A stretch of 64,000 nucleotides of DNA, from IMG/VR virus record IMGVR_UViG_3300032092_000001; one strand, written 5' to 3'. Positions within the stretch are counted from its first letter, which is position 1. Every line of letters starts with the position of its first letter. This document shows positions 27,311 through 61,781 of this stretch, one piece after another. The translations under genes were made by a program, and so were the position numbers. The stretch comes from a virus (lineage: Duplodnaviria; Caudoviricetes). A model generated the notes under the pieces. The model searched no databases, was not told the DNA's origin, and saw only the letters and a list, made by a program, of their open reading frames with translations.

Positions 27311-27312
27311 AA

Positions 27313-27633: not shown

Positions 27634-27660
27634 AGTTAAATGATAACACAAGTAGTGACT

Positions 27661-30571: not shown

Positions 30572-30702
30572 TTCTTCTTAATATACTCAACATCATAACA
30601 AGGAGCACCTTCTGGATAAATGCATAAATGTTTCATTTTTGTATCATATAACACATCTGATGTGTCAATATGAGTTACAGGTTCTAAAGTTGCGGTCATA
30701 GG

Positions 30703-43893: not shown

Positions 43894-44177
43894 TTATTTA
43901 TTTTATAGATTTCATAATATACTGTATCACCAACTGAATAGTTCTTCAGAGTTTTGAATGTTGTTGTATCATCAATGGTAACATCGTAATACAAATTCAT
44001 TTCCTCTTGAACACTTCTTGGTATGTGTCGTTTAACACTAGTTACCACGTGTTTTTCTCTACCAACATAGGTTGCACCTTTACCACTATCTTTTAGTATG
44101 ATTGCAATTATACACATCACAAACAATACTACTGAGGTTCCGATGACAAAATTTGCCCAAAAATTCTTTTCGTTCAT
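43890..44177 (-). CDS. membrane-anchored small protein
   Basis: N-terminal TM. Confidence 0.6.
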   Translation of the reverse strand: MNEKNFWANFVIGTSVVLFVMCIIAIILKDSGKGATYVGREKHVVTSVKRHIPRSVQEEMNLYYDVTIDDTTTFKTLKNYSVGDTVYYEIYKINK

Positions 44178-44857
44178 AGGTTTAAGAAATGTTTTAATTT
44201 ATTAATATTCATAGTCACATTTTTTGGAACATGTATTGGTGAATTAATAGGGTTAACTTCTTTTGTCTTCATCGCCAACTCATAAATTGTTTTAATTTCA
44301 GTTCCAACATTATAAATTCCCACCCCATTACCTTCAATTAGTCTAACAACCAAATCAGATATTACCGAAGTATAATCAGCATTTGTCAATACATCAACCC
44401 AAGCATCATCATATGGAAATGGATATGGTTTATGAGATAAACGACAGATAAGATAATTTTTACCAAATAAAACTATATGTTCGTCTGCAAATAGTTTTGA
44501 TAAACTATACCAGTTTCTATCAGGAACTGTAATACTATCTTCCGAAGCGTTTTCATATGAACCAGCGTATACATAATCAGTTGATATGTGGACTAACTTC
44601 TTACCCATCTCATTACAAAAATTGACAAGATGTGTTACAAACTTATAATTGTCCCTCATCATCACCTCTTTGTCATTTGAATAGGTATTGGTATTTGCAA
44701 TACAATTTACAATAACATCATAAGGGTGTAACATCCACATCCACTCATCAAAATTATCAGTAGTAATTCCGTCCTTTTTCCTTGATATGAAATCCCAACC
44801 TGTTTGGTTAATAATTTCCTTACCTAAACTACCATCACCAATTACTAAAACACTCAT
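44174..44857 (-). CDS. RmlD-like NAD(P)-dependent sugar reductase/epimerase
   Basis: VIGDGSLG, HISTDYVY, WYSLSK. Confidence 0.8.
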   Translation of the reverse strand: MSVLVIGDGSLGKEIINQTGWDFISRKKDGITTDNFDEWMWMLHPYDVIVNCIANTNTYSNDKEVMMRDNYKFVTHLVNFCNEMGKKLVHISTDYVYAGSYENASEDSITVPDRNWYSLSKLFADEHIVLFGKNYLICRLSHKPYPFPYDDAWVDVLTNADYTSVISDLVVRLIEGNGVGIYNVGTEIKTIYELAMKTKEVNPINSPIHVPKNVTMNINKLKHFLNL

Positions 44858-45915
44858 AACTTTTTATATTCGGGTTTTAAATAATTCCATATTACTTTAT
44901 CAGTGTTCTTTCCATCCCACATCAAAAAACATAATGCCTTTATCTTTGGGTGGGTCTTACATTCTTCCAAATGTAATGCAAACTCCTTCTTTGATGGTTC
45001 AGGGTTTCTATCCCCATACTTACCATAACGGAAGTATGAATATATCTTGTAAGCATAATCCCCATAACGATAGTGATTATATCTTAAATCGGCAACGTAC
45101 ATCTTTATCTTTTTGTAGAACTCGTCAGGAACATCTTTCAATAATTCCAATACATCTTTACCTTCACTCAACATTTCCCACACCGCAGTGGTAGATACAT
45201 TGGTCATTATCTTATGTAGACGAAGATACTCCTCACCCTTAACTTTCATTCTATCCCCATTAGAGAAACGAACAACAAAACCTTCTTCATCGTGATTTAT
45301 CATCCCCTTCAATTCGGAATAATCCCGAATTCCATCGTATTTTTTGACAACTTTGAACCCAAGATTATTGATTAAGTTCTTCAATCTAACATCGTTACCC
45401 TCACCATACAAATCAACCTCATATCCAGTTTCAGTATTTATCATTCCGAGTAATACCAAATCTTCGTATGGATATTTCACAACGATACGGTTATCGTCAT
45501 ATATTATTTCAAATAGGTAAGTGTAGCCCTTATGTAGTTTTTGATAGTCATACTTCTGTAACATCTCAAATCCTTTAACCGCTTGGTCAGAAGTGAAAGA
45601 ACCACGAGTCGCCATTACCCACTCACCTTCATAGTTGAATAGTATTCCCAAAGAACCATCCATCTTATCGTAAACGTCAAAGTCAGGAGTTGCGGTGTGT
45701 TTTTTCTCAGATTCGTTAAAAAATTTACGAAATGGTCTAGCGACAACTGACCCATTTACATCAGTAACTAATCCACGAGTTTGTAGGGTAACATCATCCC
45801 ACTTACCTTCGTATTGAACGGTTTCGGTATAGTTCCACATAGTCAAAGGAAGAGTTGGGTGTACTTGTTTGTACACCAACCCTTTCTCAAAATATCTATT
45901 TAGAACTTCATTCAT
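44854..45915 (-). CDS. T4 Rnl1-like RNA ligase
   Basis: RGLV...RPFRKFFN, KMDGSLG, TYLFEII, EGFVV, RMKVK; TATCTTTG at 45920-45927. Confidence 0.88.
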   Translation of the reverse strand: MNEVLNRYFEKGLVYKQVHPTLPLTMWNYTETVQYEGKWDDVTLQTRGLVTDVNGSVVARPFRKFFNESEKKHTATPDFDVYDKMDGSLGILFNYEGEWVMATRGSFTSDQAVKGFEMLQKYDYQKLHKGYTYLFEIIYDDNRIVVKYPYEDLVLLGMINTETGYEVDLYGEGNDVRLKNLINNLGFKVVKKYDGIRDYSELKGMINHDEEGFVVRFSNGDRMKVKGEEYLRLHKIMTNVSTTAVWEMLSEGKDVLELLKDVPDEFYKKIKMYVADLRYNHYRYGDYAYKIYSYFRYGKYGDRNPEPSKKEFALHLEECKTHPKIKALCFLMWDGKNTDKVIWNYLKPEYKKL

Positions 45916-45933
45916 TTGACAAAGATACAAAAA

Positions 45934-46536
45934 TTAATTTAAACTTTCAGGTAAAAATAACAAAGTTGGATTTTTCTTTTGTAGGTCCAATTCAGGAAAG
46001 TGTTTTTTAAATTCCATCACATCAAATCTTTCAGTGATAAGATGATAACCATTTTTGGTTGGGATTTCACTTATGATTTTATCCTTTCCAAAAGGAGCAC
46101 AACTATCAATTGCAAGTTTAACCTTTAATAACTCTTTGTTGTCCTTACTATCAACATCAACAATCCACCTCTTCTCATAAGTTTTTATCTGACCAACAAC
46201 TGAGTCAAATAAACCTTTCTGATTAGTCTGCCCGTTACGAATTCTTTCAGCCAAAGACATCATCATTTCCAAAGAGACATCCTTATGGTTTTGTTTCTGA
46301 ACATGGATATATGCACGAGCTTTAAACATTTCACACAATTGTTTAATCTCATCATATCGTTTTTCCAAATACTCAACACTATCAACACAATAAGTTTTGA
46401 TGGTACGAACTGACTGGTGATTGTCCCTCTCACCTTCAGGTTGGTCTTTCTTACGTTTGAAAACATAGAGCATATAGAAGTCACCCTCGTTCTCAAAGTT
46501 CAATAATGGTTTTATTAATTCAATGTTGTCAATCAT
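45934..46536 (-). CDS. hypothetical protein with AEP (primase-polymerase)-like motifs
   Basis: WIVDVD and PTKNGYHL; start revised to MIDNIEL. Confidence 0.5.
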   Translation of the reverse strand: MIDNIELIKPLLNFENEGDFYMLYVFKRKKDQPEGERDNHQSVRTIKTYCVDSVEYLEKRYDEIKQLCEMFKARAYIHVQKQNHKDVSLEMMMSLAERIRNGQTNQKGLFDSVVGQIKTYEKRWIVDVDSKDNKELLKVKLAIDSCAPFGKDKIISEIPTKNGYHLITERFDVMEFKKHFPELDLQKKNPTLLFLPESLN

Positions 46537-46666
46537 TTTGCAAATATTGCAAAATTTCTTCAAGAATTTCAACTTGTCCCTTAAAATAATCTTTTTGGGA
46601 AGTATTATCTCTTAACCTTTCAGCTTGTTGTTTTTTTTCTGTAATATATTTTTTTAAATCTTCCAT
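46529..46666 (-). CDS. 45-aa hypothetical protein
   Basis: Hand-translated MEDLKKYITEKK...; overlaps the next start. Confidence 0.5.
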   Translation of the reverse strand: MEDLKKYITEKKQQAERLRDNTSQKDYFKGQVEILEEILQYLQND

Positions 46667-46759
46667 ATTATTTTTCTTTATTATAAAAAGGTTTAGTTAT
46701 TAAAAAGGATATGAACATTCCTGTCCATATCCCCGATAGTAAACATCCGAGTGCCAACA

Positions 46760-47029
46760 TTATTCTTGTTCGATTATGATGTTACCACTCACTTCAATCA
46801 ACTTTCCATTCTCACGATTTGTAAAATAATATCCATCAGATTTTTCTTCACTAATCACTTTACCTGTTGAATGGTAGGTAATAATTGTGTCAGGTCCAAG
46901 AACCTTAACCGTAAAGGTATCTCCATATCCACCCATCTTACTCATCGTCGCATCGGTACAAGATACCATTGTCGCCATAATTGTTAGTAATGCAAATAAC
47001 ATCACCACATAAAAATTTGATTTTCTCAT
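46760..47029 (-). CDS. putative lipoprotein
   Basis: Lipobox-like MVSC after a hydrophobic stretch. Confidence 0.65.
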   Translation of the reverse strand: MRKSNFYVVMLFALLTIMATMVSCTDATMSKMGGYGDTFTVKVLGPDTIITYHSTGKVISEEKSDGYYFTNRENGKLIEVSGNIIIEQE

Positions 47030-47709
47030 ATTATATCTATTTGTTTATTTTCTAAATTAATTGTAATGTCAAAAGGTTTTTGGTTGTGAGAATAACGCTC
47101 ATCCAACACTGATGAGTTGAAAAAGTGTGTTCCGTTCTTCTCAACATAACCATAACCTGAATGAATATGTCCACAGTTGTGAATCAAAGGATGTAATGTT
47201 TCCAATCGTTTTGCAAGCATCTCACATCCAAGATTAAAATCACGACGATTAACCACAGTATCCAAGATACCCCAAGCCGGTCCGTGTGTCAATAAGATAT
47301 CCGTGTCATCAGGAATGTCTTTCCACTTTTGTTCAATCTCCCATCCGTTTCGTGGTAAGTTGAATGCCCAATTGTAGAACTCAGGTTGCCAAGGACTACC
47401 ATAGATTTTCAATCCCTCAAACTCAACGAAGTCATCAATCAAACAACGAACACCTTTGTCGTGGAACTCATTAATCATCTTCCAAGCGTCGAATGGTTTG
47501 TCCTCAATATATCTGTCGTGGTTACCAGGAGTAAACACCTTCATCTTGTATGGTAACTCACTAAACCAAGTTAAGAAGTCATACAAATCTTCCCAATCAT
47601 AACCTGAATTCATAATGTCACCACTATGTAAAATCAAGTCGCCACCATTCACAAGGACATTTCTTTCCCTTGTGTGAGTATCTGACATCAATGTTACTTT
47701 AATCTTCAT
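47026..47709 (-). CDS. metallophosphoesterase (MPPED-like)
   Basis: SDTH, HSGD, PGNHD, LLTHGP, GCEML, CGHIH; start revised to MKIKVT. Confidence 0.85.
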   Translation of the reverse strand: MKIKVTLMSDTHTRERNVLVNGGDLILHSGDIMNSGYDWEDLYDFLTWFSELPYKMKVFTPGNHDRYIEDKPFDAWKMINEFHDKGVRCLIDDFVEFEGLKIYGSPWQPEFYNWAFNLPRNGWEIEQKWKDIPDDTDILLTHGPAWGILDTVVNRRDFNLGCEMLAKRLETLHPLIHNCGHIHSGYGYVEKNGTHFFNSSVLDERYSHNQKPFDITINLENKQIDII

Positions 47710-47879
47710 AATCGTCTGGCATTTGCGTGATGACATTTTTTTTCCACCACTTTGCAAATTTACTACTTTCAAACTTACCGGCCAAATATTCTCCAAGAAT
47801 TATTACTCCAATACAGAATAACACTAGTAAAGTACAAGTACCGAAAAACGCTAAAATGAAAAATAACATAATTTTTTAT

Positions 47880-48095
47880 TTAAATTGTGTAATACACTTT
47901 TGTAGTTCTTGGAAGTCCTGGGTAGTAACTATCAATTCTACGATGGATATTCTCGTCCTGTTCGTCAATGTCTTCAGGTATAGGTCCAATCCCGAAATCT
48001 AAAATGTCAAAGTGTTGGTCAATCTTTTTAATAATATCAAGACGTTGGTCTATGGTAAGATTAACATTTAACTCAATTCTACTTGTAACCGTCAT
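47880..48095 (-). CDS. hypothetical protein
   Basis: ORF. Confidence 0.55.
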   Translation of the reverse strand: MTVTSRIELNVNLTIDQRLDIIKKIDQHFDILDFGIGPIPEDIDEQDENIHRRIDSYYPGLPRTTKVYYTI

Positions 48096-48541
48096 ACTGT
48101 ATGTGGTATTGTGTGTCTAACACAGGTTTGTGGTTTTGCTTCGTTCATCAAAAAGTTGTTGATGTAACCCATCATATTGGCAGACCCAATAGGGTTAGCG
48201 GAATGAACCAAAACAATTGGGAACATTATTGGCTCCTTCTTCTTATCAAAATAATTCATCTCCAATCTTTCAGGGTATTGTAAGTAGAACTCATCAACCA
48301 AGAACTTAGCCGCATCATACCCAGTCTTCTCTGAAATGTTATTATAGTCCAATTTGAAGTTAGGAGATACATTCGTGTGGTACTCATTCATAGCACTGTC
48401 TCCCAAGTCGTGGTCCAATGAAATAATTGAGACATTCTTAATCCCAATCTTTTGTACCAAATTCACAAACTCGTGGTAGTTTCTCACAACCATCCAGTCT
48501 TTGTCCTTCGGTGTACGAACATCATCTAGATAAATCTTCAT
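48092..48541 (-). CDS. cyclic-phosphate-processing receiver-like protein
   Basis: IYLDDVRTP, ISLDHDLG, TGYD, VHSANP. Confidence 0.75.
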   Translation of the reverse strand: MKIYLDDVRTPKDKDWMVVRNYHEFVNLVQKIGIKNVSIISLDHDLGDSAMNEYHTNVSPNFKLDYNNISEKTGYDAAKFLVDEFYLQYPERLEMNYFDKKKEPIMFPIVLVHSANPIGSANMMGYINNFLMNEAKPQTCVRHTIPHTV

Positions 48542-48542
48542 C

Positions 48543-48758
48543 TTATTCTCCTTTTATTTTTTCCCAACCATCTTCAATTCTTTTTGAACCAATAGTGTTA
48601 AACCAAATCTCAAATGCAAAAAAGAATAACCACCAATTGTAATCAACTAATTCAGTTATTTTATAGTATCCGAAAGCGGAGACCAATAACATTATAATAA
48701 AATAGATTGGTAGTAACGAATAAAACACCAACCAAAACCAATTAAAAAATTTCTTCAT
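48543..48758 (-). CDS. small membrane protein
   Basis: Two hydrophobic helices. Confidence 0.6.
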   Translation of the reverse strand: MKKFFNWFWLVFYSLLPIYFIIMLLVSAFGYYKITELVDYNWWLFFFAFEIWFNTIGSKRIEDGWEKIKGE

Positions 48759-48784
48759 ATATTATATTTTTTTACAAAGATACG

Positions 48785-49171
48785 TTAAACTTCCTCGCGT
48801 TCCAAATAATTTATCATCATACTCGCCATTGAGTAATTCGTAGCAATTGGTGTGTCAGTCACATTACATATTCTTAACACCATCTGAACATCCACCTCGT
48901 GTGGATGAGATGATAATGGGTCAATAAAGAAAATTACATAGTCAATCTCCTTATCAACAATCTTAGCAGCAATTTGTGCATCACCGCCCATAGGTCCTGA
49001 TTGTAATCTATTAACCTTAACACCGGCAAACTCAATGTGTTTACCTGTAGTTCCCGTCGCATAAATGTTAGCTCTACGTTTGAAGAACTCTAATCTCTTC
49101 ATGATAAAGGCAACCATATCCGCCTTCTTGTTGTCGTGAGCGATAACCGCAATATTAAATTTATTATTCAT
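48785..49171 (-). CDS. mgsA: methylglyoxal synthase
   Basis: IAVIAHDNKK, ATGTTG, SGPMGGDAQI, FFIDPL..HPHEVDV, PIATN. Confidence 0.95.
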   Translation of the reverse strand: MNNKFNIAVIAHDNKKADMVAFIMKRLEFFKRRANIYATGTTGKHIEFAGVKVNRLQSGPMGGDAQIAAKIVDKEIDYVIFFIDPLSSHPHEVDVQMVLRICNVTDTPIATNYSMASMMINYLEREEV

Positions 49172-49205
49172 AGTCTAAAAAAAGTCACAAGGGTTCATTA
49201 TTATT

Positions 49206-49592
49206 TTATCCCTTTAAAAGGTCTTTATTTTTTTTGATATCAAAATAGGTATCAATTAATTTATCAATTCGTTTGTCAGTATATGAATTGGACTCTCTAA
49301 CTGAATCCGTCATTTTAGTATCCATACCTCTCCAAATATCCGTAATTTGTCTTTCCAATCTGTCGTTATGTTCTCTAAACTCAGAATGAATATTTTGTCT
49401 TTCAGTATCAATTCTTCTTGATGTGTAATCCATCTCAGTTGAGATGGTTCTCAACAGTCCTTGGATATCTTCTTGTAAATTTTTAATTTGTGTTTGTTGT
49501 TTATTAATCGTAAGCAAACCCCAAGTAATCACCCCAATAAGAATTAGAGCAAAAACCGAGAGCATACCTAAAACAAAATAAGTTGTTTCCAT
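49206..49592 (-). CDS. N-terminal TM + coiled-coil protein
   Basis: Hydrophobic N-terminus; DSRIDK-like C-terminus. Confidence 0.7.
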   Translation of the reverse strand: METTYFVLGMLSVFALILIGVITWGLLTINKQQTQIKNLQEDIQGLLRTISTEMDYTSRRIDTERQNIHSEFREHNDRLERQITDIWRGMDTKMTDSVRESNSYTDKRIDKLIDTYFDIKKNKDLLKG

Positions 49593-49652
49593 AATATTTT
49601 CTCCTTTATTTCAAAGAACCCTTGTAACCTGATAAAGGATAATAAATAAAAA

Positions 49653-49832
49653 TTACACAATCAACCATAGGATTAAATCAATCATACCAACAGTAAAAAA
49701 TGCAAGGATAAAATCCGCGAATAATCCAATTAATTCTGTTCTTAAATCAACAAACACAACTTTGGATTTGAGATAACTCCAAAATCTAACAAAGAATGTT
49801 ACAAATAAACATTGTATTATAAAATTTACCAT
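49653..49832 (-). CDS. small membrane protein (start revised to MVNFIIQ)
   Basis: TATATTTG at 49837-49844. Confidence 0.6.
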   Translation of the reverse strand: MVNFIIQCLFVTFFVRFWSYLKSKVVFVDLRTELIGLFADFILAFFTVGMIDLILWLIV

Positions 49833-49847
49833 GATACAAATATAAAC

Positions 49848-49876
49848 AAAAAACCCCACCTAATAAGATGGGGTTT
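49848..49876 (-). terminator. intrinsic terminator
   Basis: AAACCCCA...TGGGGTTT. Confidence 0.75.
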
Positions 49877-49895
49877 AACTTTTAAATTATTTAAT

Positions 49896-50555
49896 TTAAA
49901 ATTTCACTCGTTGTCCACATTCATCGTTAGCACCACAAAAATCACAACATCCGGCACTTCCACGACAACATGTTTTACCCCTTCTAAAACATGCTATACA
50001 TCCAGTTGGTGAACTTTCACTAACTTCTTCATCCATTTCAATCTCATAGATGGTTTCATCAATTTCTTCCACGTCCATTTCAATTTCATAGATAATTTCA
50101 TCAGATTCAAATATTGGCGAACCGCCTGGAATCTTTTTACCAGTTCTTGGGTCCATACACCCTTGTGAGGTACAAGTGCCGACCGGACAACATTTATTAT
50201 TTGACGAACAGTAAGTCATTCCACCCAAACATCCGGGTACTTTAGATGGTGTTGAGGTAGGTTTTGTTAGAGCTTCGTCCATGTCTTCAGTTTCTTTCAA
50301 AGCAGTTGTAGTTTCACATTTACCATTATTACATTTTTGTGGAAATTTGCAATCTTTGCTAGTATTACAACCCGCAGCTTCTTTTATAGCACTATCGGAC
50401 TTGCTTTCATTTATCAAAACATTGTTTATCAATTTAGACATTTCTCTTTCAGATAAAGATTGTCTTTTTAGTTCAGACTCCTCTTTAATTACATTTTTGT
50501 GTTGTGAGAGTATCCTTTGTTTTTCAGATTCAGATATAACTATTCTTTTTTTCAT
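49896..50555 (-). CDS. leader protein with three Cys-rich modules
   Basis: 4-, 6- and 8-Cys modules separated by Glu-rich linkers. Confidence 0.75.
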   Translation of the reverse strand: MKKRIVISESEKQRILSQHKNVIKEESELKRQSLSEREMSKLINNVLINESKSDSAIKEAAGCNTSKDCKFPQKCNNGKCETTTALKETEDMDEALTKPTSTPSKVPGCLGGMTYCSSNNKCCPVGTCTSQGCMDPRTGKKIPGGSPIFESDEIIYEIEMDVEEIDETIYEIEMDEEVSESSPTGCIACFRRGKTCCRGSAGCCDFCGANDECGQRVKF

Positions 50556-50655
50556 CTTATTTTTTAAATATAAATACCTTGTAAATTAAAAAAATGTTTT
50601 TTTTAAAAAAATTTTGTTGGTAGATTATTATTCGTATATTTGAAAAAAAAAACAT

Positions 50656-51066
50656 ATGAAAAAAACAATAACTTTAATTTTAGTATTATTATCAACTATT
50701 AGTTTTTCACAGAACTTAGAATTAGTACTAGTTAAACGGTATGTGGGTGATTCATTAAACAATCCAGATAATATTTCATTATCTGAAATTAAAAAGTTGA
50801 ATTTTTACGATTGTCCGTGTCATAACGAATTTAAAATTAATTCGGATAAGATTATGTGTTCCTCAATTTGTAATAATAATAAATTTAATTATACTTTAAA
50901 TTTTATTAATGACGGAAATCAGTATACTTGTTTTAATAATCAAAATGATTATATGGTGACTTATAAGTTAATTGAGGATAATAATCAAATTTATTTGATA
51001 GATTATCATCCATTTGATTCTTATAATTCCTATACTATTTGGTTATGTAAAAAAAAGGGTGAATAA
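50656..51066 (+). CDS. AT-rich secreted-type protein
   Basis: Signal peptide MKKTITLILVLLSTISFSQ; opposite strand within the Cys-rich array. Confidence 0.65.
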   Translation: MKKTITLILVLLSTISFSQNLELVLVKRYVGDSLNNPDNISLSEIKKLNFYDCPCHNEFKINSDKIMCSSICNNNKFNYTLNFINDGNQYTCFNNQNDYMVTYKLIEDNNQIYLIDYHPFDSYNSYTIWLCKKKGE

Positions 51067-51076
51067 TCACCCTTTT

Positions 51077-51679
51077 CTATTTTTCCCATTTTTGAGCATT
51101 TCTACAATCACAATAACAAGGTTGTTTTGGTGGACAAGTAACCACACCTGCAATACGGTCTGAACCACAATTACATGAATCACCAGGTCTTCCATATGCC
51201 TCGTCTAACTCATCTAATTCATCATTCATTTCTGAAATAATTTTAGTATATAATTTTTTTAATGAGTTTTCTTTCACCGTGGTACTAGTAGTTGATGTAC
51301 TAATAGGTTTTGGAGTGGTTGACGTAGTAGTCGTTGTTGTTGGAGCGGGTTTTGGTAATTTTTGTTCTCTTCCAGGTACTTGCATTCCAAAACTCCATGA
51401 CGTACACCCACAACCTGAAGCTTGATTAACATCCGCTAAACTCCACCCTGTGTATACACCAGCATTTGTGGGACATCCAGGAATACTACCTCCGTTACAT
51501 GCCCAACATAATTTTTGAGTTCCGTTAAAAGATTGTCCACAGTTATTTAACTGATTACCAGATGCGGGACCTGATAGAGCTTCTTTAACTAATTTATTTT
51601 TGGAACTATTTTGTTCTTTAATGACTCTCTTAATGATATTCATCAAATCAGATTCTTTCAGTTTAACTATTTTTTTCAT
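51077..51679 (-). CDS. LKESDL-leader protein with two Cys-rich modules
   Basis: Thr-rich linker between modules. Confidence 0.75.
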   Translation of the reverse strand: MKKIVKLKESDLMNIIKRVIKEQNSSKNKLVKEALSGPASGNQLNNCGQSFNGTQKLCWACNGGSIPGCPTNAGVYTGWSLADVNQASGCGCTSWSFGMQVPGREQKLPKPAPTTTTTTSTTPKPISTSTTSTTVKENSLKKLYTKIISEMNDELDELDEAYGRPGDSCNCGSDRIAGVVTCPPKQPCYCDCRNAQKWEK

Positions 51680-51724
51680 ATTATTTTTTACATATAAATA
51701 TCTTAATTATTAAAAAATTATTAT

Positions 51725-51997
51725 TTAATAAGGATTTACAGGATTATGTGGGTATATTACCTCACAAGTCGTGTTGTGTTGACAATAAGTCCCCTGTACA
51801 CACTGGTACCCTTGAGGACAACATTGAGGCCCACAAGGTACCTCCTTTGTTGCACATCCGTTATGTTTAACCGGTTCAGTCTTAGTTCCTTTAACAATTA
51901 AATTTTTAGTAGGACATGATTGTCGGGTAGATTCATTAATAACTCGTTTAATGATACCAACTAAATCAGATTCTCTTAATGTTATAATTTTTTTCAT
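51725..51997 (-). CDS. LRESDL-leader Cys-rich peptide
   Basis: Start revised to MKKIITLRES; CGPQCCPQGYQC. Confidence 0.75.
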   Translation of the reverse strand: MKKIITLRESDLVGIIKRVINESTRQSCPTKNLIVKGTKTEPVKHNGCATKEVPCGPQCCPQGYQCVQGTYCQHNTTCEVIYPHNPVNPY

Positions 51998-52005
51998 ATA
52001 TTTAA

Positions 52006-52242
52006 TTATCTCCCATAACAAACACAAGTCCTTGCATGTTGAGCACTAGCATACCATCCATTTGCATTATTACAGACAGTCTCGCCAGTCTCAGGTAAAG
52101 TAGTTGTCGCAGGTTGTTTACATCTTTTTCTAGTTGCAGTATTTGTATTTCCAACCGAGACATTACTTTTAGTTTGTTCTTTAACAACTTTATTTATTAA
52201 TTTAACCAAATCAGACTCAGTTAATTTTACAATTTTTTTCAT
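52006..52242 (-). CDS. LTESDL-leader Cys-rich peptide
   Basis: CNNANGW...CVCYGR. Confidence 0.75.
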   Translation of the reverse strand: MKKIVKLTESDLVKLINKVVKEQTKSNVSVGNTNTATRKRCKQPATTTLPETGETVCNNANGWYASAQHARTCVCYGR

Positions 52243-52254
52243 ACAATATATTTT

Positions 52255-52530
52255 TTATTTACCTCCTCTTCCACCTTTAAAACACTTACATGTTAGAACT
52301 CCATTAGCCGCAGTCGCCGCAGAGTCAGTACCCCACCCATTCGCAGAATTACAATTATAAGTTGGTTCTCCACTTGAGCTATTATAACTCACAGTATAAT
52401 AAGGGTCCTTACATAATCCTCCAGCTAATTTTTGTGGAGTTGCAGATGGTTTAACTGATTCTATCTCATTTATAACTCTTTTAATCATATTAGTTAGTTG
52501 TGATTCAGTTAATTTTACAATTTTTTTCAT
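52255..52530 (-). CDS. LTESQL-leader Cys-rich peptide
   Basis: KLAGG-LCKDP...CNSANGW...CKCFKGG. Confidence 0.75.
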   Translation of the reverse strand: MKKIVKLTESQLTNMIKRVINEIESVKPSATPQKLAGGLCKDPYYTVSYNSSSGEPTYNCNSANGWGTDSAATAANGVLTCKCFKGGRGGK

Positions 52531-52562
52531 ATTAATATTTTTATAATAAATATTATAAGAAT

Positions 52563-52585
52563 AAAAAAACCCACTTTCGTGGGTT
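52563..52585 (-). terminator. intrinsic terminator
   Basis: AACCCAC-TTTC-GTGGGTT. Confidence 0.8.
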
Positions 52586-52593
52586 ATATTTTA

Positions 52594-52860
52594 TTATTTA
52601 ATAAACTTCATGACAGGTGAATCATAATAGATTGTGTCACCAACATACAAAGTATCAAAGGCCGCTCTGTCAACAGTATATTCTTTAACAACATTTTCAT
52701 GCTCAATTGAAACAAAACACGTACATGGTTCAGTTGGAGGTGTAACCGGTACGGTACAGAATATAACTTCATGTGTAACTACACCATAAATTTTAGGTTT
52801 ATCCTTAATAACAAATGACATCAAGGACAATGTAAGTAACGTTAAAATAATCTGTTTCAT
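52594..52860 (-). CDS. signal-peptide-bearing small protein
   Basis: MKQIILTLLTLSLMSF; TATCTTTG at 52885-52892. Confidence 0.65.
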   Translation of the reverse strand: MKQIILTLLTLSLMSFVIKDKPKIYGVVTHEVIFCTVPVTPPTEPCTCFVSIEHENVVKEYTVDRAAFDTLYVGDTIYYDSPVMKFIK

Positions 52861-52934
52861 AGTTTTGTGTTTTTAATATTTACACAAAGATAAATGAAAA
52901 ATTCACTTAACCAAAATAAAATTAAATATTTTAA

Positions 52935-53213
52935 TTATCTAGTTTTTCCACCTTTAGAACAAGCACAAACCAGTGGTACGGGAGGATTGCTACAAGCATT
53001 ACCAACAACTGCGCTACCTTGAGCAGCTGTCCATCCATTTGACCCATTGCACTGAAAAGTACATCCATTTCCAGTGTACACTATCATAGGGTCTTTACAT
53101 GTTCCGCCAGCTAATTTAGTAACTAATGACGATACAGATGGTTTTGACTCTTTAATTACTTTCTTGATGATATTCATCAAATCTGATTCTGTTAATTTTA
53201 CAACTTTTTTCAT
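52935..53213 (-). CDS. LTESDL-leader Cys-rich peptide
   Basis: KLAGG-TCKDP...CNGSNGW...CACSKGG. Confidence 0.75.
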   Translation of the reverse strand: MKKVVKLTESDLMNIIKKVIKESKPSVSSLVTKLAGGTCKDPMIVYTGNGCTFQCNGSNGWTAAQGSAVVGNACSNPPVPLVCACSKGGKTR

Positions 53214-53248
53214 ATAATAATCTTTAATTAATAAATACCATCTAAAAT

Positions 53249-53275
53249 AAAAAACCCCACATTACTGTGAGGTTT
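53249..53275 (-). terminator. terminator after dnaK
   Basis: AAACCCCAC...GTGAGGTTT. Confidence 0.65.
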
Positions 53276-53293
53276 GTATAACAAATTTATATT

Positions 53294-55156
53294 TTATCCT
53301 TTTACTTCTTCAAAATCAACATCAGACACATTTACTTCTTCAGTTTGATTTTCAGGAGATTGTTGTGAATATAATTTTTCAGATATCTTTTGAAACACAA
53401 CATTAACGTTATCCATCTTGGTTTTAATGTCATCCACATTTTTTGTAGAATGGGCCGACTTTAATTCGTCAATTGCAGTGGTAACTTCAGTTTTTTCTTC
53501 CTCAGACAATTTATCTTCCATATCTTTCACTGTCTTTTCAACTTGGAAGATTAGACCGTCCGCCTGATTGATAACCTCAGCATCTTCTTTCGCCTTCTTA
53601 TCAACATCAGCATTTGCTTCAGCTTCTTGTTTCATTCTTTCAATTTCTTCTTTTGAAAGTCCTGATGATGCCTCAATACGAATGTTCTGTTGTTTGTTGG
53701 TCCCTTTGTCCAATGCTGATACATTAATAATACCATTGGCATCAATATCAAATGTCACCTCAACTTGTGGAACACCTCTCATCGCCGGTGGAATACCATC
53801 CAAGTGGAAACGACCAATTGTTCTATTGTCTTTTGACATTGCTCTTTCACCTTGTAATACGTGGATTTCAACTGATGGTTGGTTATCAACTGCGGTTGAG
53901 AATACCTGTGACTTCTTGGTTGGAATTGTTGTGTTAGCTTCAATCAACTTTGTGAACACACCACCCATTGTTTCAATACCAAGTGATAGTGGAGTAACAT
54001 CCAACAACAATACATCTTTCACATCACCTGCTAATACTCCCGCTTGGATTGCCGCGCCTAATGCAACTACCTCATCAGGGTTAACACCTTTTGATGGGTC
54101 CTTACCGAAGAACTTCTTAACCGCTTCCTGAATTGCAGGAATACGTGTTGTACCTCCAACCAAGATTATTTCATCAATGTCAGATGTTTTAAGTCCCGCA
54201 CTTTTAAGAGCCGACTCACAAGGTTTAATAGTTCTTTGAACCAAACTATCAACAAGTTGTTCAAACTTCGCCTTAGTCAAATTACGAACCAAGTGTTTTG
54301 GGACACCATCAACTGGCATAATGTATGGAAGGTTAATCTCTGTTGAAGGTGAAGATGATAATTCAATCTTCGCTTTCTCAGCCCCTTCACGTAGACGTTG
54401 TAATGCCATTGGGTCTTTGGTCAAGTCCAATCCATTCTCGTCCTTAAATTCTTTAACCAACCAATCAACGATAACATTGTCAAAGTCATCACCTCCAAGG
54501 TGTGTGTCACCATCAGTAGATAATACTTCAAATACACCATCACCCAATTCCAAAATAGATACGTCGTGAGTTCCACCACCACAGTCAAACACAACAATCT
54601 TCATATCTTTAGATTGTTTATCCAAACCATATGCAAGAGCTGCCGCAGTTGGTTCATTAACAATTCTCATTACCTTCAATCCCGCAATCTCACCGGCCTC
54701 TTTTGTTGCCTGACGTTGAGCGTCGTTGAAGTATGCCGGTACCGTAATAACTGCTTCGGTAACTTCAGAACCCAGATAGTCTTCAGCAGTTTGTTTCATC
54801 TTTTGTAAAACCATTGCCGAAACTTCTTGTGGAGAATACTCCTTACCGTCAATCTCAACACGTGGAGTTCCTTTACTATTTACCACTTTGTAGGGAACTC
54901 TATTTACTTCACTTTTACTTTCATCAAATCCAGTTCCCATAAAACGTTTAATAGATGAAATTGTTTTTTCAGGGTTGGTCACCGCCTGACGTTTTGCCGG
55001 GTCACCAATCTTTCTCTCACCACCATTGATAAATGCAACAATTGAAGGGGTGGTTCTCTTTCCTTCACTGTTTGTAATCACAACTGGTTCGTTACCTTCC
55101 ATTACGGCAACACACGAATTAGTTGTTCCAAGGTCAATTCCTATAATTTTTCCCAT
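53294..55156 (-). CDS. dnaK: Hsp70 chaperone DnaK
   Basis: [50 protein letters not shown]. Confidence 0.98.
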
Positions 55157-55230
55157 AGTTTAATTTAATTTTGTTTAATAATATTGATTATTTTTTATGG
55201 AGTCAAGTCCGACCCCCATTATTAAACAAT

Positions 55231-55265
55231 GTGCCAAAACAAAAAACCTGACATTTTGTCAGGTT
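55231..55265 (-). promoter_or_regulatory. AACCTGACA-N3-TGTCAGGTT palindrome plus TGGCAC upstream of dnaK
   Basis: 9-bp arms at 55245-55253 and 55257-55265; TGGCAC at 55236-55231; may also act as a terminator. Confidence 0.5.
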
Positions 55266-55269
55266 CATA

Positions 55270-55668
55270 TTAACTAATTGTCTTAATTTTTACACCATAA
55301 GGTAATTCATGTCCGTAATTGTGTTCAAACCATTTCAGAAAAGGTTCACGCCAGTGGTTACCAAACATTCCATCCAACTGATTTTTAATATCAGGTTCGT
55401 CAATACTCAATATTGGTGATTCTTTTTTTCTAATCATACCAAATTGATTATCCATCCAATAATTCTCCAAATAAATTGTGAATTGTCTATCATAATCATC
55501 ATTGTAAAATCCAATAGAGTCAATGTGACTTATTTTTTCAGGGAAGTTAACTTCTTCCATATCATCAAAATAACCCACCGACATGTTTGATGGTAATAAA
55601 TTGTCAATATACTTGTAGATTTTATCAGATATGGTTTGTTTCTGACTTTCAGTTATTACGTATTTCAT
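55270..55668 (-). CDS. ITESQ-leader protein
   Basis: MKYVITESQKQ. Confidence 0.7.
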   Translation of the reverse strand: MKYVITESQKQTISDKIYKYIDNLLPSNMSVGYFDDMEEVNFPEKISHIDSIGFYNDDYDRQFTIYLENYWMDNQFGMIRKKESPILSIDEPDIKNQLDGMFGNHWREPFLKWFEHNYGHELPYGVKIKTIS

Positions 55669-56771
55669 AATAATGCGTATAATCTAGTTAAACTTCTAAA
55701 CAACTCGTCACCCCTTCTATCAAATACTTTCTCCCAATGTTTAAAGAATAACTTAGGGTTATCTAATAGTTTCTGACTCATGCCACGGAAAGGGTTACTG
55801 GTCATTCCATTATCTCTAGCATGCTCAACAATTCGTTTCAAAATTTCATTCCAACTCTCAAGAGCAAATTGGGTATGTTGTTGAGCCATTGGTTTTCTAA
55901 AGATGTCCTCCAAACTTTGCATACGACTCAAATCATTAATTAACTTATCAGCCGAGAATGATTTTAACATTTTAACATCTCTGTAAGTATCAGTATCTTT
56001 AATAGAATCAATGAAGTCATTATAGTTCTCAATTTTTTTACTTTTAAGAACTTTTAATGATTGAGGAATTCTAGCCTGATGCTCAAACCTTAAAGACAAA
56101 TAAAGAATATGTAAAAAATAATTGAACTCCTTATTGAAGTCCTTTTTAAGAGCCCCCGCCAAAGTGTTTAAAGTATGTTCCTTACCAAAACCAACTTGAC
56201 CTGACTTTGTATATCTCTTAAATAACTGATAAGAATGGAATACCTCGTGAGCAATTACTGAATCTAAATTTGGGCTTAGTGTATCAAGGTCATCCCAATT
56301 TGAATCCCCCATAGTAATGTCAAATTCAAAGTCACCACTACTATAAGTTTTACCTAAACCTTTCTTATCTTCAAGTCCCATCTTTTCAGAGTTAAAGACA
56401 TGAGTAGCATTAATGGTAGGTTTTTTTATATTGTTAATATCTAACGCTTCGTCAGGGTAAATGTTAAAACTTATTGTAACTTTATTCTTATACATAGGAA
56501 ACTTATCCCACAACTCCTTATTGAAGAGTGGAGAGTTCTTAACATACTTCCAAGATTTTTCTTTACCTACGTTTATATTACCTGACCTATACTCGGTATC
56601 ACCGTATCCCTTAACGTCAGCTTCACCAACTTTAAGTTTTTTACCACTATCTTTAAATGCCTGAATCTCATCTTTAACCAAGTTGGTTAAGATGTCAACC
56701 ATCATTTCAATATCATCAGGAACACCGGCAGCTTCCTTAATAATCTGTTTTATTCTTGTTTGAGTTATCAC
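55665..56771 (-). CDS. leader-bearing HExxH zincin-like protein
   Basis: RIKQIIKEA leader; VIAHEVFHSYQ...FEHQARI. Confidence 0.65.
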   Translation of the reverse strand: MITQTRIKQIIKEAAGVPDDIEMMVDILTNLVKDEIQAFKDSGKKLKVGEADVKGYGDTEYRSGNINVGKEKSWKYVKNSPLFNKELWDKFPMYKNKVTISFNIYPDEALDINNIKKPTINATHVFNSEKMGLEDKKGLGKTYSSGDFEFDITMGDSNWDDLDTLSPNLDSVIAHEVFHSYQLFKRYTKSGQVGFGKEHTLNTLAGALKKDFNKEFNYFLHILYLSLRFEHQARIPQSLKVLKSKKIENYNDFIDSIKDTDTYRDVKMLKSFSADKLINDLSRMQSLEDIFRKPMAQQHTQFALESWNEILKRIVEHARDNGMTSNPFRGMSQKLLDNPKLFFKHWEKVFDRRGDELFRSLTRLYALL

Positions 56772-56913
56772 CAGTTTTAACTTTTAAGATTTTATCCAAC
56801 TCCCATTTCATTGGAACATCTGTCTTAGTCATTAACTCATTAAGTTCTTTGTCTGTAAGGTTTTCTAATGGATTTTTCATAATACAAATGTATAAATAAA
56901 TATTAACAAAAAC

Positions 56914-56945
56914 AAAAAACCCCTTAATAAAATACTAAGGGGTCT
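56914..56945 (-). terminator. terminator after tRNA pair
   Basis: ACCCCTTA...TAAGGGGT. Confidence 0.7.
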
Positions 56946-56950
56946 TGTTG

Positions 56951-57034
56951 TAGTCGGAGCGGGAATCGAACCCGCACGGACGTTAGTCCACAGCATTTTA
57001 AGTGCTGCGTGTCTACCTATTCCACCATCCAACC
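56951..57034 (-). tRNA. tRNA-Leu(TAA)
   Basis: Cloverleaf; anticodon stem CAGCA/TGCTG with loop CT-TAA-AA; long variable arm; GGTTCGATTCC. Confidence 0.92.
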
Positions 57035-57040
57035 ATTCTG

Positions 57041-57114
57041 TGCGCCCTACAGGAATCGAACCTGTCACCCACTGATTATGAGTCAGTTGCTCTAACCGAA
57101 TGAGCTAAGGGCGC
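57041..57114 (-). tRNA. tRNA with CAT anticodon (Ile2-like or elongator Met)
   Basis: GCGCCCT/AGGGCGC acceptor; ACTGA-CTCATAA-TCAGT. Confidence 0.9.
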
Positions 57115-57168
57115 TCATCTCAAATCCTTTACAAATATACAATGGTTTTTTTAGATAATCAAGCTTTA

Positions 57169-57729
57169 TTATCGTGGTTGTGTAAAAGCTTGAGAATAAG
57201 CACCCAAATCAATATCGGGTGATAAGAGTTCTTTGAGTTCTTTTATAAAATCTTGGGTGTAACTCCACTGCTCAGTTTTAAAGTTTCTGAAAATAATTTT
57301 AATCTCGGGATTTCTATCTTTTTCAAATTCAGCAGTGACATTTGGGTAGTTGGTTTCTTTGATTTTTTCTTCAATCTTATCACCAATACTATCAAAATAA
57401 TCGTAATTAACAAAAGTATTAAATGCTCTGAGCTTTTTATATTTGGACTCCAATCCAGAAATATCCATGAAATCTTGTATTTGGAACTCCATATTTTTAT
57501 CCCAATCGTATGTGAAAAGTTGTAGACCTGTCATACCTTTTGGTTTTGTAAAATATTTTGCATAACCGGCGTCATAGTTTGGTGAGTTAATATCAACCTT
57601 TGATAAATCAATATTAAATTTAATATAATCACCATAGGAATCTTCAACATATTCAAGTTTGAAGTCCTTTGGTAACTTTCCACTTGCAAAAAGATAAGAT
57701 GACAATATTTTAAGTAGTTTCTCCGTCAT
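57169..57729 (-). CDS. hypothetical protein
   Basis: 186-aa ORF. Confidence 0.7.
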   Translation of the reverse strand: MTEKLLKILSSYLFASGKLPKDFKLEYVEDSYGDYIKFNIDLSKVDINSPNYDAGYAKYFTKPKGMTGLQLFTYDWDKNMEFQIQDFMDISGLESKYKKLRAFNTFVNYDYFDSIGDKIEEKIKETNYPNVTAEFEKDRNPEIKIIFRNFKTEQWSYTQDFIKELKELLSPDIDLGAYSQAFTQPR

Positions 57730-57731
57730 TA

Positions 57732-58058
57732 TTAACCGTATATAGTTTCATCATCTTTATTTATAACTTTTATAAAAACTTGTTGGATGGTCGCAGTATC
57801 CCTATTGATATTCAAAAATTTAAGTAGATAATTTAAATGAACATCGTATAAATAATGTGGGTCAAATCCCTTGTCATACATGTTATTACTAGTTATTGTT
57901 GGGTCATTTAACTTAACAGTTATAAAAAATTGGTAGAAAGGAAATTCCTCATCTCCATCCCATCTAACATCAGCATCAATATTGTCAATCATCGGATATA
58001 TGTTTTTAATATAATCCGAGTTAAATAACTTGTTTGCGAGTTTTGATGTTAATATCAT
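57732..58058 (-). CDS. hypothetical protein (start revised to MILTSKL)
   Basis: Promoter elements at 58063-58077. Confidence 0.65.
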   Translation of the reverse strand: MILTSKLANKLFNSDYIKNIYPMIDNIDADVRWDGDEEFPFYQFFITVKLNDPTITSNNMYDKGFDPHYLYDVHLNYLLKFLNINRDTATIQQVFIKVINKDDETIYG

Positions 58059-58080
58059 AATAATAAATACAAAGATAAAT

Positions 58081-58108
58081 AAAAAACCCCATCCAAGGAC
58101 AGGGTTTA
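58081..58108 (-). terminator. intrinsic terminator
   Basis: AAACCC...GGGTTT. Confidence 0.6.
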
Positions 58109-58126
58109 TTAATTTTTGTTTTAAGA

Positions 58127-58480
58127 TTACTTGGTATAAGTTCTCAAACAATGTGCTGTCCAAGCCGCGACTCCAAGGAAGATTGGCATTAATATTCCAT
58201 CCCCTCCGAACATTGCAATGTGAACCGCAACTGCTCCTGACATAACAGAAGACAAAACCAACGCGCCATAGACTGATGTTCTTGGGATACAAAGAGCAAT
58301 GACTCCTGCAACTTCCATAACCCCAACAAGTGCCATATATGGTAACATGTTCATTGCGGTAAAGTTTGCGGTCATAGCTTCAGAGCCGGTGATTTTTGAC
58401 AATCCACCCATTCCGAGCATAAAGGTAACGATTGCGGTTAACAACCATCCCAAGTTTTTAAGTGTTAAATAATTTTTCAT
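58127..58480 (-). CDS. DoxX-like membrane protein
   Basis: Four hydrophobic helices; GVMEVAGVIAL.IPRT..YGALVL...GAVAVH. Confidence 0.8.
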   Translation of the reverse strand: MKNYLTLKNLGWLLTAIVTFMLGMGGLSKITGSEAMTANFTAMNMLPYMALVGVMEVAGVIALCIPRTSVYGALVLSSVMSGAVAVHIAMFGGDGILMPIFLGVAAWTAHCLRTYTK

Positions 58481-58525
58481 AATCCAAGTATAAGATATTA
58501 ACTTTGGATTGTCAATAAATATGGT

Positions 58526-58876
58526 TTAGAAAGACTTGGTCCATCTCAACATATACTTACCATTAACTTTGTCAAATGGCTCAAAACTAACTCTGAAATT
58601 ACCTATATTACCATAGACCGGATAGATTGGGAATTCCCATCCATCAGATTTAATATGAAATGCATTAACACCAACAGGAGATTTCTTCAAAATTGATATA
58701 AAATCATCTGTCTTAACTTCAGTTCCAGCTTTAAATGGGAATCCCTTTGGGTTATTGTCAGGTATTTTAATGGTTTTAGGGACAATTTGTCCTTTGTCAG
58801 TTATCTGTTCTTCAATAACTCTTTTAACAATTTTAACTAAATCCGACTCTGTAAGTTTAATTACTTTTTTTATCAT
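58526..58876 (-). CDS. LTESDL-leader protein
   Basis: MIKKVIKLTESDLVKIVKRVIEE. Confidence 0.75.
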   Translation of the reverse strand: MIKKVIKLTESDLVKIVKRVIEEQITDKGQIVPKTIKIPDNNPKGFPFKAGTEVKTDDFISILKKSPVGVNAFHIKSDGWEFPIYPVYGNIGNFRVSFEPFDKVNGKYMLRWTKSF

Positions 58877-59181
58877 TTTTTAAGTGTTAAATATGTACCA
58901 TTAATTGACCAAGTTCCTTTATCTGGAACTCCCATCATATTTTTAAGTTGTATCTTTATTGATTTTTTGTTTTTATCGTAGTCAGGGTGGAAAAATACGA
59001 TACCACTCCCACCTCCAATTTTTAATACAAAATTACCTTTTGTTAAATCCTTAACACCTAATAGATTTTTAATTTTACTTGTTATTGCACCATCATTTAT
59101 TTTTTTTTCCAATGATTCATTAATAACCCCTTTAATAATATTAACCAAATCAGATTCTGTAAGTTTAATAATTTTTCCCAT
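58873..59181 (-). CDS. LTESDL-leader protein
   Basis: Start revised to MGKIIKLTES; TATTTATA at 59185-59192. Confidence 0.75.
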   Translation of the reverse strand: MGKIIKLTESDLVNIIKGVINESLEKKINDGAITSKIKNLLGVKDLTKGNFVLKIGGGSGIVFFHPDYDKNKKSIKIQLKNMMGVPDKGTWSINGTYLTLKK

Positions 59182-59203
59182 ACATATAAATATGTTTATA
59201 AAT

Positions 59204-59229
59204 AAAAAACCCCTCACATTGGAGGGGTT
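59204..59229 (-). terminator. intrinsic terminator
   Basis: AACCCCTC-ACATTG-GAGGGGTT. Confidence 0.8.
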
Positions 59230-60220: not shown

Positions 60221-60252
60221 TAACTATAAGGTAATTTGTTTTTTTGTGAAGG

Positions 60253-61088: not shown

Positions 61089-61110
61089 GTATATAAATAT
61101 GTTAAATAAT

Positions 61111-61138
61111 AAAAAACCCCACCTTATGAGTGGGGCTT
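61111..61138 (-). terminator. intrinsic terminator
   Basis: CCCCAC-CTTATGA-GTGGGG. Confidence 0.75.
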
Positions 61139-61154
61139 AATGAAGTCTTGTTAT

Positions 61155-61751: not shown

Positions 61752-61781
61752 AATTTTTTTTATTATAAATATCATTTAAAT

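Follow-up and report, generated by a model that had tools for sequence, protein, structure and literature searches.

A shared N-terminal tag on cysteine-rich and other proteins of an uncultured T4-like phage and its putative role in capsid targeting

The cysteine-rich gene array

The window analyzed here is a 64,000-nucleotide (nt) stretch of DNA from the IMG/VR virus record IMGVR_UViG_3300032092_000001. Six minus-strand open reading frames (ORFs) within positions 49896-53213 of the window encode nine cysteine-rich modules, each with an even number of cysteines. The encoded proteins begin with short tags, which are also found at the N-termini of unrelated proteins. The interpretation that we favor, and regard as moderately likely from the sequences compared, is that the tag is a capsid-targeting propeptide like those of the T4 internal proteins (IPs), with knottin-like mini-proteins as its cargo. 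The six cysteine-rich genes are best explained as one hypervariable cassette locus holding cargo of this putative tag system. The genes of the locus are as follows (aa, amino acids; Cys, cysteines):

52935..53213, minus strand: 92-aa tagged protein, 6 Cys; composed of the tag (residues 1-22, MKKVVKLTESDLMNIIKKVIKE), a flexible spacer, and a β-rich 6-Cys domain
52594..52860, minus strand: 88-aa untagged protein with an N-terminal hydrophobic signal or transmembrane segment, inside the array
52255..52530, minus strand: 91-aa tagged protein, 4 Cys; paralog of the 92-aa gene with KLAGGLCKDP, CNSANGW, and CKC
52006..52242, minus strand: 78-aa tagged protein, 4 Cys; CNNANGW...CVC
51725..51997, minus strand: 90-aa tagged protein (counted from its MKK start), 8 Cys; PCGPQCCPQG
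51077..51679, minus strand: 200-aa tagged two-module protein, 6+6 Cys
50656..51066, plus strand: inverted 136-aa gene with an N-terminal signal-peptide-like segment (MKKTITLILVLLSTISFSQ)
49896..50555, minus strand: 219-aa polyprotein with modules of 4+6+8 Cys

The six ORFs and nine modules had been reported in a first-pass annotation of the window, and all are present on the minus strand. Cysteines make up 4.4-8.9% of the array proteins, compared with 1.2% in window ORFs of at least 120 aa. The motif C-N-x-x-N-G-W...C-x-C occurs in three of the genes and KLAGGxCKDP in two, as that annotation stated; in the 92-aa protein the former reads CNGSNGW...CAC. The core of the 90-aa protein has the spacing C-x6-C-x3-CC-x5-C-x5-C-x5-C. 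The 200-aa protein is composed, in order, of a 6-Cys module, a Pro/Thr-rich linker, an acidic LDELDE segment, and a second 6-Cys module. The predicted mature parts of the four small array proteins are basic, with charges of +3 to +5 (+5 in the 92-aa protein). According to AlphaFold2 (AF2), the 92-aa protein is formed by a helix (residues 9-23), a disordered segment (residues 25-36), and a β-domain (residues 40-88) predicted with a local distance difference test score (pLDDT) of ~80. A Foldseek search of this model against the PDB returned nothing at E<=0.001, and a look-up of the 90-aa protein in the ESM Atlas gave no usable match. No significant family was found in Pfam, NCBIfam, or PHROGs for the six array proteins or for the other tagged proteins.

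The window is derived from a large T4-like phage that is uncultured and whose host is probably a member of the Bacteroidota. This assignment is based on the T4_Y16D, RNA_lig_T4_1, and Por_Secre_tail-bearing genes encoded by its close collinear relative, contig L001 (RNA_lig_T4_1 is also present in the window), and on contigs of ~285 kb that carry proteins of the window's genome. Contig L001 is 186 kb long, has an identical gene order, and is ~89% identical to the window in nucleotide sequence in the flanks of the array. The 92-aa protein has eight metagenomic homologs of 60-97% identity, which keep all six cysteines. The cysteine patterns, on whose conservation the first-pass annotation depended, are conserved in these 8 and in 20 polyprotein homologs. 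The ratio of non-synonymous to synonymous substitution rates (dN/dS) relative to L001 is 0.08 for the 92-aa gene, 0.20 for the 78-aa gene, which has an ortholog in L001, and 0.19 for the 88-aa gene, which is also conserved there; these are the three alignable genes of the locus. The array genes are under purifying selection, as is evident from the conserved cysteines and the dN/dS values of 0.08-0.20. The AT-rich inverted gene of a secreted type that had been noted in the middle of the array was confirmed as the 136-aa gene (21.9% G+C); it is accompanied in the array by a second signal-peptide-like gene, the untagged 88-aa one. The inverted gene is absent from L001, and is likely a recent insert outside the tag system.

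The common leader that the first-pass annotation placed on all six genes heads five of them. At the start of the 219-aa polyprotein is a second tag type (ISESEKQRILSQH..VIKEE), and the tag-like LSEREMSKLINNVLINE comes after it, so that the double tag reads ISESEKQRILSQHKNVIKEE + LSEREMSKLINNVLINE. The three cysteine modules of the polyprotein are separated by LKE/MDE linkers. The terminal 8-Cys pattern C-C-CC-CC-C-C and the Glu-rich (L/I/V)xE linkers are present as previously described. The polyprotein also carries an acidic block, DEIIYEIEMDVEEIDETIYEIEMDEE, in which IIYEIE resembles the EEIVYEISFDD of the scaffold protein introduced below. In the 20 homologs of the polyprotein, the double tag and acidic block are constant and are combined with three to seven shuffled modules of 4, 6, or 8 cysteines. 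The linkers, for example TTSLKEM, SKEMKEG, and TAMKEAS, are conserved while the modules vary. The tripeptide [LIVM]xE is present in 33 of 34 distinct inter-module linkers, against ~39% expected from the window proteome, and in 20 of the 21 short inter-module linkers (24% expected). The (L/I/V)xE linkers are consistent with polyprotein cleavage. The two tag types look interchangeable, because in proteins of other phages (P0202, P0205, P0207, and P0208) the module set of the 200-aa protein is positioned behind the ISESEK tag type. The AF2 models contain a helical tag, disordered linkers, and small β-modules; module 2 of the 219-aa polyprotein is predicted as a confident small β-module with a pLDDT of 87-90. 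In a wide VIA-align search with the 219-aa model, only the long tag helix was matched, to coiled coils, with Z ~5.

The modules had been described as knottin-like, which agrees with their small size, knottin-like spacing, and even cysteine counts. Polyprotein module CLGGMTYCSSNNKCCPVGTCTSQGC has six cysteines with the C-C-CC-C-C spacing of knottins in about 25-35 residues, and related CGGGCC-type modules are found in the 90-aa protein and in homologs. The modules resemble knottin/inhibitor cystine knot, Dickkopf_N, EB, and Dumpy-DPY domains in that they are 17-30 residues long, have 4, 6, or 8 cysteines, and have spacings such as C-x6-C-x5-CC-x4-C-x4-C or C-x5-C-x5-C-x4-C. Modules of homologs score at or near the Pfam thresholds of Dickkopf_N, EB, Dumpy_DPY, and DUF7107, all of which are disulfide mini-domains, whereas the window's own proteins match no family of Pfam, NCBIfam, or PHROG. 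Disulfides are favored over Zn(Cys)4 sites, because six cysteines per module agree better with three disulfides and the 6-Cys modules are devoid of CxxC pairs; Zn(Cys)4 modules were dropped from consideration on these grounds.

Disulfide mini-domains typically occur outside cells, the modules are similar to repeats of eukaryotic extracellular proteins, and the habitat is oxic fresh water. It is therefore conceivable that lysis frees the cysteine-rich proteins, or that the virion displays them on its outside, as disulfide-stabilized toxins, adhesins, or decoration proteins, with the tag addressing the capsid exterior. However, the Dickkopf_N, EB, and Dumpy-DPY families are secreted eukaryotic proteins, whereas the array proteins have no signal peptide. 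The tag is carried by many proteins that are not cysteine-rich, the polyprotein has a scaffold-like acidic block, and in T4, N-terminal propeptides that end in x-E serve internal loading (PMC9026906). We consider an extracellular destination very improbable, and return to the capsid-targeting propeptide below.

Four array transcription units and most of the other tagged genes in the window are preceded by the motif ATATTTAT, at a distance of 11-30 nt from the start codon. TATTTAT is a candidate late-promoter element. The transcription units are bounded by hairpin-plus-T-run terminators. The elements within and next to the array are:

~53249-53274: DnaK terminator hairpin, which precedes the TATTTAT at 53231..53237
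53231..53237, minus strand: TATTTAT, 24 nt upstream of the ATG of the 92-aa gene
~52563-52585: terminator hairpin after the 88-aa gene
52546-52552: TATTTAT upstream of the 91-aa gene
51694-51700: TATTTAT upstream of the 200-aa gene
~51049-51076: terminator after the 200-aa gene
50570-50576: TATTTAT upstream of the 219-aa polyprotein gene
~49850-49876: terminator after the polyprotein gene

The flanks of the array are collinear between the window and L001, but the array itself differs. The 91-aa gene is missing in L001, with the breakpoint among the initial 29 nt of the tag-coding DNA. In place of the 90-aa, 200-aa, and inverted genes, L001 has genes for two other cysteine-rich peptides of 75 and 70 aa, which are of the CGGGCC type like the 90-aa protein, and the L001 polyprotein has a different module set. 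Copies of the tag-coding DNA are on average 71% identical to each other, and such DNA can plausibly act as a recombination site. Two further loci of L001 (L001:4813-5106 and L001:10991-11452) encode tagged cysteine-rich peptides with 6 Cys each, where the window has Cys-free or different cargo; cysteine-rich cargo thus recurs and moves between tag sites. A 284,559-bp Joint Genome Institute contig of the genome ends inside the array at ~52,47x, near the tag-coding start of the 91-aa gene, as calculated from coordinate arithmetic only. The contig may stop here because the repeated tag sequence broke the assembly, or because the genome itself terminates.

The N-terminal tag and its carriers

The tag has the 22-residue consensus MKKvVKLTESDLxxIvKRVIxE. 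Its profile matches 13 ORFs of the window, seven of which have ordinary Cys-poor cargo of 96-251 aa, so the leader is not particular to the cysteine-rich genes. The seven ORFs are:

3769-4524, minus strand: tagged Cys-poor ORF
4527-5069, minus strand: tagged Cys-poor ORF
5317-6033, minus strand: tagged Cys-poor ORF
6632-7279, minus strand: tagged Cys-poor ORF
9366-9656, minus strand: tagged Cys-poor ORF
58526-58876, minus strand: tagged Cys-free ORF, on the other side of tRNA-Leu/Met (56950-57114)
58873-59181, minus strand: tagged Cys-free ORF, likewise beyond tRNA-Leu/Met

The tag alone retrieves 22 IMG/VR viral contigs, in which the cargo ranges from ~50 to 490 aa. When the tag profile is compared with 1.84 billion representative proteins, 7,561 clusters match at E<=1e-3, of which 260 still match at E<=1e-10; in almost all of the 150 best ones, the match starts at residue 1. 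In an alignment of 90 diverse tagged proteins, only E9 and E22 are invariant, and M1, K3, L7, T8, D11, L12, and I20 are nearly so. The two invariant glutamates give the tag an L-T-E at residues 7-9 and a terminal (I/V)-x-E. Outside the tag, the mean column identity of the 90 proteins is 6%. A Pfam match of any kind was obtained for eight of them, and all are unnamed metagenomic proteins. Many tagged proteins contain a second or third, internal copy of the tag. Full tags alternate with cysteine-rich modules in P0030 (335 aa, 26 Cys) and P0049 (411 aa, 32 Cys). Because of the number of ORFs and clusters that carry it, its position at residue 1, and the unrelated cargo, we regard the tag as a general address and not as a peptide-specific leader.

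The first-pass annotation had considered the array proteins as possible ribosomally synthesized and post-translationally modified peptides (RiPPs). As RiPP or bacteriocin-like precursors, they would have a leader read by modifying enzymes and by a double-glycine peptidase/exporter, and their cysteine-rich cores would be exported. The array proteins indeed resemble class II bacteriocins and Bacteroidota GG-type RiPP precursors in being short, in combining a conserved leader with variable cysteine-rich C-termini, and in forming a multi-copy array, and two of them contain KLAGG. However, orthologs have KVGG, KFTSG, or KHVGP where KLAGG supplies the proposed double-glycine site, and four of the six array genes lack this site. 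The same leader precedes Cys-free proteins of 96-490 aa and thousands of unrelated ones, unlike the leaders of GG-type precursors. Radical SAM, YcaO, and lanthipeptide enzymes, C39 peptidase/ABC exporter, and thiol oxidase were not found within ~6 kb of the array, in agreement with the earlier statement that no modifying enzyme is encoded nearby. The only Pfam and NCBIfam matches among the neighbors from 44174 to 61775 are DnaK, methylglyoxal synthase, cREC_REC, Metallophos, RNA ligase, epimerase, and C92 amidase, and the context is that of a lytic T4-like phage. We give hardly any credence to RiPP-like precursors. The tagged cysteine-rich proteins are probably packaged and injected, and not antibiotic-like peptides, if the comparison with T4 presented below applies.

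Alternatively, the tag could be a retained structural module, such as an oligomerizing helix or half of a ribbon-helix-helix (RHH) fold, of intracellular proteins whose cysteine modules bind metal. On inspection, the strand and helix of the tag bear a vague likeness to the first half of RHH proteins; cysteine clusters can bind zinc, and the cytoplasm is reducing. However, the cargo diverges straight after E22, where a disordered spacer follows, and many of the modules have six cysteines and lack CxxC pairs. The modules of homologs score near the thresholds of the extracellular disulfide families Dickkopf_N, EB, and Dumpy_DPY. Moreover, a retained fold would hardly explain why polyproteins contain internal repeats of the tag. 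A retained module is quite improbable in our estimate. The specific case of a half-RHH tag was dropped, as there is no second helix and the cargo diverges at once. Weak matches of the tag to DUF5854 and PMBR were also discarded; they were below threshold and did not recur in the 90 tagged proteins.

The tag is absent from Pfam, PHROGs, and the literature searched, and appears to be undescribed so far. A tblastn search among cultured phages with a tagged protein and a 36-aa tag peptide returned nothing, the short query being near the detection limit.

Other N-terminal tag "dialects" are found behind ATATTTAT in the window (12459-17751 on the plus strand, 7698-8872 on the minus strand, and others). 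MKY(L/I)ITESQ(L/I)D is present on a paralog family, and further dialects are MDLQEHIRRILKEE (19217-19744), MKELIRKVLTESRE (21684-22901), and MEVLIRQILREF (39320-39901). A 572-aa fusion of polyphosphate kinase 2 and phage lysozyme is encoded ~4-6 kb before the window start in the same or a near-identical genome (L042:14692-16410). The fusion has the N-terminus MKKLISE...QLNE, its domains are split by a PEVNE↓QK junction, and it looks like tagged cargo.

Link to T4-type head assembly

Peptidase_S77, the family of the T4 prohead protease gp21, is encoded by four of the five larger tag-bearing contigs, and the capsid protein family Gp23 by three of the four searched. In contig G003 the genes for the portal, core proteins, protease, a very acidic 525-aa scaffold, and the capsid protein follow each other as in T4. 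In each of the four related contigs (L026-L029), the protease and scaffold genes are likewise preceded by ATATTTAT, at a distance of 20-32 nt. A search for homologs of the protease gave, among the matches listed, only closer relatives of the query. The relatives' protease has GILIEYDAGY at its N-terminus, where LIE recalls the LIE near the N-terminus of T4 gp21 (PMC9026906). A gp21-type protease is encoded at L038:2716-3435. A 247-aa ORF is located between the portal and protease genes of G003 (L038:1197-1940); its amphipathic N-terminal segment ends, like the tag, in hydrophobic-x-Glu (...KIEKVLLES).

When T4 gp23 is aligned with the capsid proteins of the relatives, SFLTE↓A falls on (H/F/Y)LINE↓A(T/S). 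We take SFLTE↓A to be the maturation cleavage position of T4 gp23. The predicted site in the relatives, I-N-E, is the tripeptide that ends many of the tags (RVINE↓Q). T4 gp21 cleaves after Glu in L/I-x-E, and the T4 internal proteins are loaded by means of a 10-residue N-terminal capsid-targeting sequence (CTS), which is removed afterwards (PMC9026906, PMC3012670). The internal proteins of T-even phages are a diverse set, in which the CTS is the sole shared sequence (PMC9026906, PMC3012670). The N-termini of T4 IPs read MKTYQEFIAE↓A, as we verified from their sequences.

The tagged proteins are similar to T4 IPI, IPII, IPIII, and Alt, which are also small unrelated late proteins sharing a short N-terminal propeptide that ends in hydrophobic-x-Glu. 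Further common features are a gp21-type protease and an acidic scaffold in the tag-bearing phages, hypervariable cassettes, proximity to tRNAs, and basic mature parts. In T4, ipII/ipIII and ipI flank the tRNA cluster, and here the tagged genes flank tRNA-Leu/Met. The tag is far more conserved than the CTS and has two Glu sites. It occurs on at least 13 genes in 64 kb and in thousands of clusters, compared with four T4 proteins. The predicted cargo includes cysteine-rich mini-domains and multi-module polyproteins, whereas T4 IPs lack cysteines. Between the tag and the CTS MKTYQEFIAE only the initial MK and the terminal x-E are alike. Since there is no sequence resemblance, our proposal is that the tag works like the T4 CTS, and not that the two are one family by descent.

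Several observations weigh against a T4-like capsid-targeting role. The tag is 22 residues long, compared with 10 in the CTS, and is unrelated to it in sequence. [LIVM]xE is a short motif with a background of 2% per position. A profile search of immuto, the closest cultured T4-like Flavobacterium phage, found no tag while positive controls worked, and the tag is therefore not a general feature of such phages. No head genes were found in the ~19 kb upstream of the window; they were seen only in tag-bearing relatives. Disulfide-rich domains are unexpected in the reducing cytoplasm, and no thiol oxidase was found in the ~6 kb neighborhood of the array. Peptides of 2-3 kDa cut from the polyprotein might leak from the prohead, as fragments of the T4 scaffold do. 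A complex prediction for the tag, scaffold, and protease of G003 had a score of 0.00, which is evidence neither way.

It is also possible that the tag addresses a different destination or partner, such as a tail or baseplate site, a phage compartment or membrane, or DnaK, of which the tagged proteins would be clients; cleavage would then not be required. The dnaK gene (53294-55156) abuts the array with synteny kept in L001, an amphipathic tag helix could bind many partners, and the placement of the proteins in the head is a prediction from sequence. However, most tagged genes are distant from dnaK. Cleavage by a Glu-specific endoprotease is suggested by the invariant E9 and E22, by the [LIVM]xE linkers, and by the tags between polyprotein modules, and the end of the tag matches the predicted maturation site of the capsid protein. 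We consider another address unlikely, and retain the capsid-targeting propeptide as the preferred explanation. Of the three functions that had been suggested for the array proteins, disulfide-stabilized virion peptides fits best, ahead of metal chelators and toxin-like effectors.

We hypothesize that the tagged genes are transcribed together with the head genes from TATTTAT-type promoters, and that the amphipathic helix of the tag docks the proteins onto the prohead scaffolding core. The gp21-type prohead protease would then cleave after Glu in (L/I/V/M)-x-E. In the tag, the sites would be LTE9 and (I/V)xE22; in the polyproteins, they would lie in the LKE/MKE linkers and the acidic IYEIE block. 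Cleavage would free mostly basic, disulfide-type mini-proteins of about 25-70 aa, which would remain with the DNA and be ejected into the next host. Their likeliest role there would be to bind and block components of host defense or other targets in the host, as T4 IPI* does, with a function as DNA counterion as the fallback. Docking, cleavage, packaging, ejection, disulfides, and target are all inferred.

Comparable loading is found in the giant phages phiKZ, 201phi2-1, and SPN3US, in which many proteins are placed in the head and propeptides are trimmed after Glu by a relative of gp21. Their ejection and inner-body proteins are matured by gp175/gp245 at S/A/G-x-E, and the propeptides contain redundant sites (PMC9026906). 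The giant-phage motif has a small P3 residue, unlike the tag, and the giant phages are not T4-like in head gene order. We know of no conserved sequence tag shared by giant-phage propeptides. Phage P1 reportedly carries Dar proteins as capsid-internal anti-restriction cargo, delivered with the DNA against host defense. Loading of the Dar proteins uses N-terminal regions of the cargo. In P1, few large proteins are loaded hierarchically, without a shared short tag or a gp21-type processing code.

A broader and decidedly tentative proposal, which we rate as possible rather than probable, is that in a very large clade of uncultured T4-like phages a near-invariant 22-residue label loads dozens of proteins per genome into the capsid, and that shuffled polyproteins diced by the protease yield an injected, rapidly evolving library of knottin-like, disulfide-stabilized anti-defense proteins. 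If true, these would be the first "phage knottins", and the tag would offer a sequence-readable catalog of injected effectors. Should the tag be a capsid address, its presence on ~7,500 protein clusters would allow injected proteins to be recognized directly in the sequences of thousands of uncultured phages. For nearly all of this cargo no function is known, and it would constitute a list of candidate anti-defense and host-takeover effectors. The cysteine-rich polyproteins would be a new natural source of tiny stable scaffolds, in which a viral protease makes a peptide library. A short conserved loading tag could also help to package foreign proteins in phage heads, as the T4 CTS already does.

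Other features of the source genome

The window has ~32% G+C and densely packed short ORFs. It contains six tRNAs, dnaK, a T4-type RNA ligase, thymidylate synthase, and several metabolic genes. Several studies contributed the lake and freshwater metagenome runs in which the array locus is contained. No copy of the locus was retrieved from IMG/VR with an exact 44-nt query, a DNA search of a cultured phage collection gave no match beyond dnaK, and no RNA dataset is listed for the array locus or for gene 49896-50555.

The gene directly upstream of the array (53294-55156, minus strand) encodes a full-length phage DnaK/Hsp70, and similar dnaK genes are present in huge metagenomic phages. Unusual phage accessory genes of the window, all on the minus strand, encode a methylglyoxal synthase (48785-49171; NCBIfam, 5.8e-46), a cREC_REC receiver domain (48092-48541), and a PAS-PAS histidine-kinase-like protein (37133-38722). 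A metabolic block on the same strand (23642-31770) encodes adenylosuccinate synthetase-like and glutamine synthetase-like proteins, a nucleotidyl (sugar-1-P) transferase, and a PALP enzyme. The block also includes a 355-aa thymidylate synthase, in which the match covers the 266-position profile and leaves ~90 residues extra.

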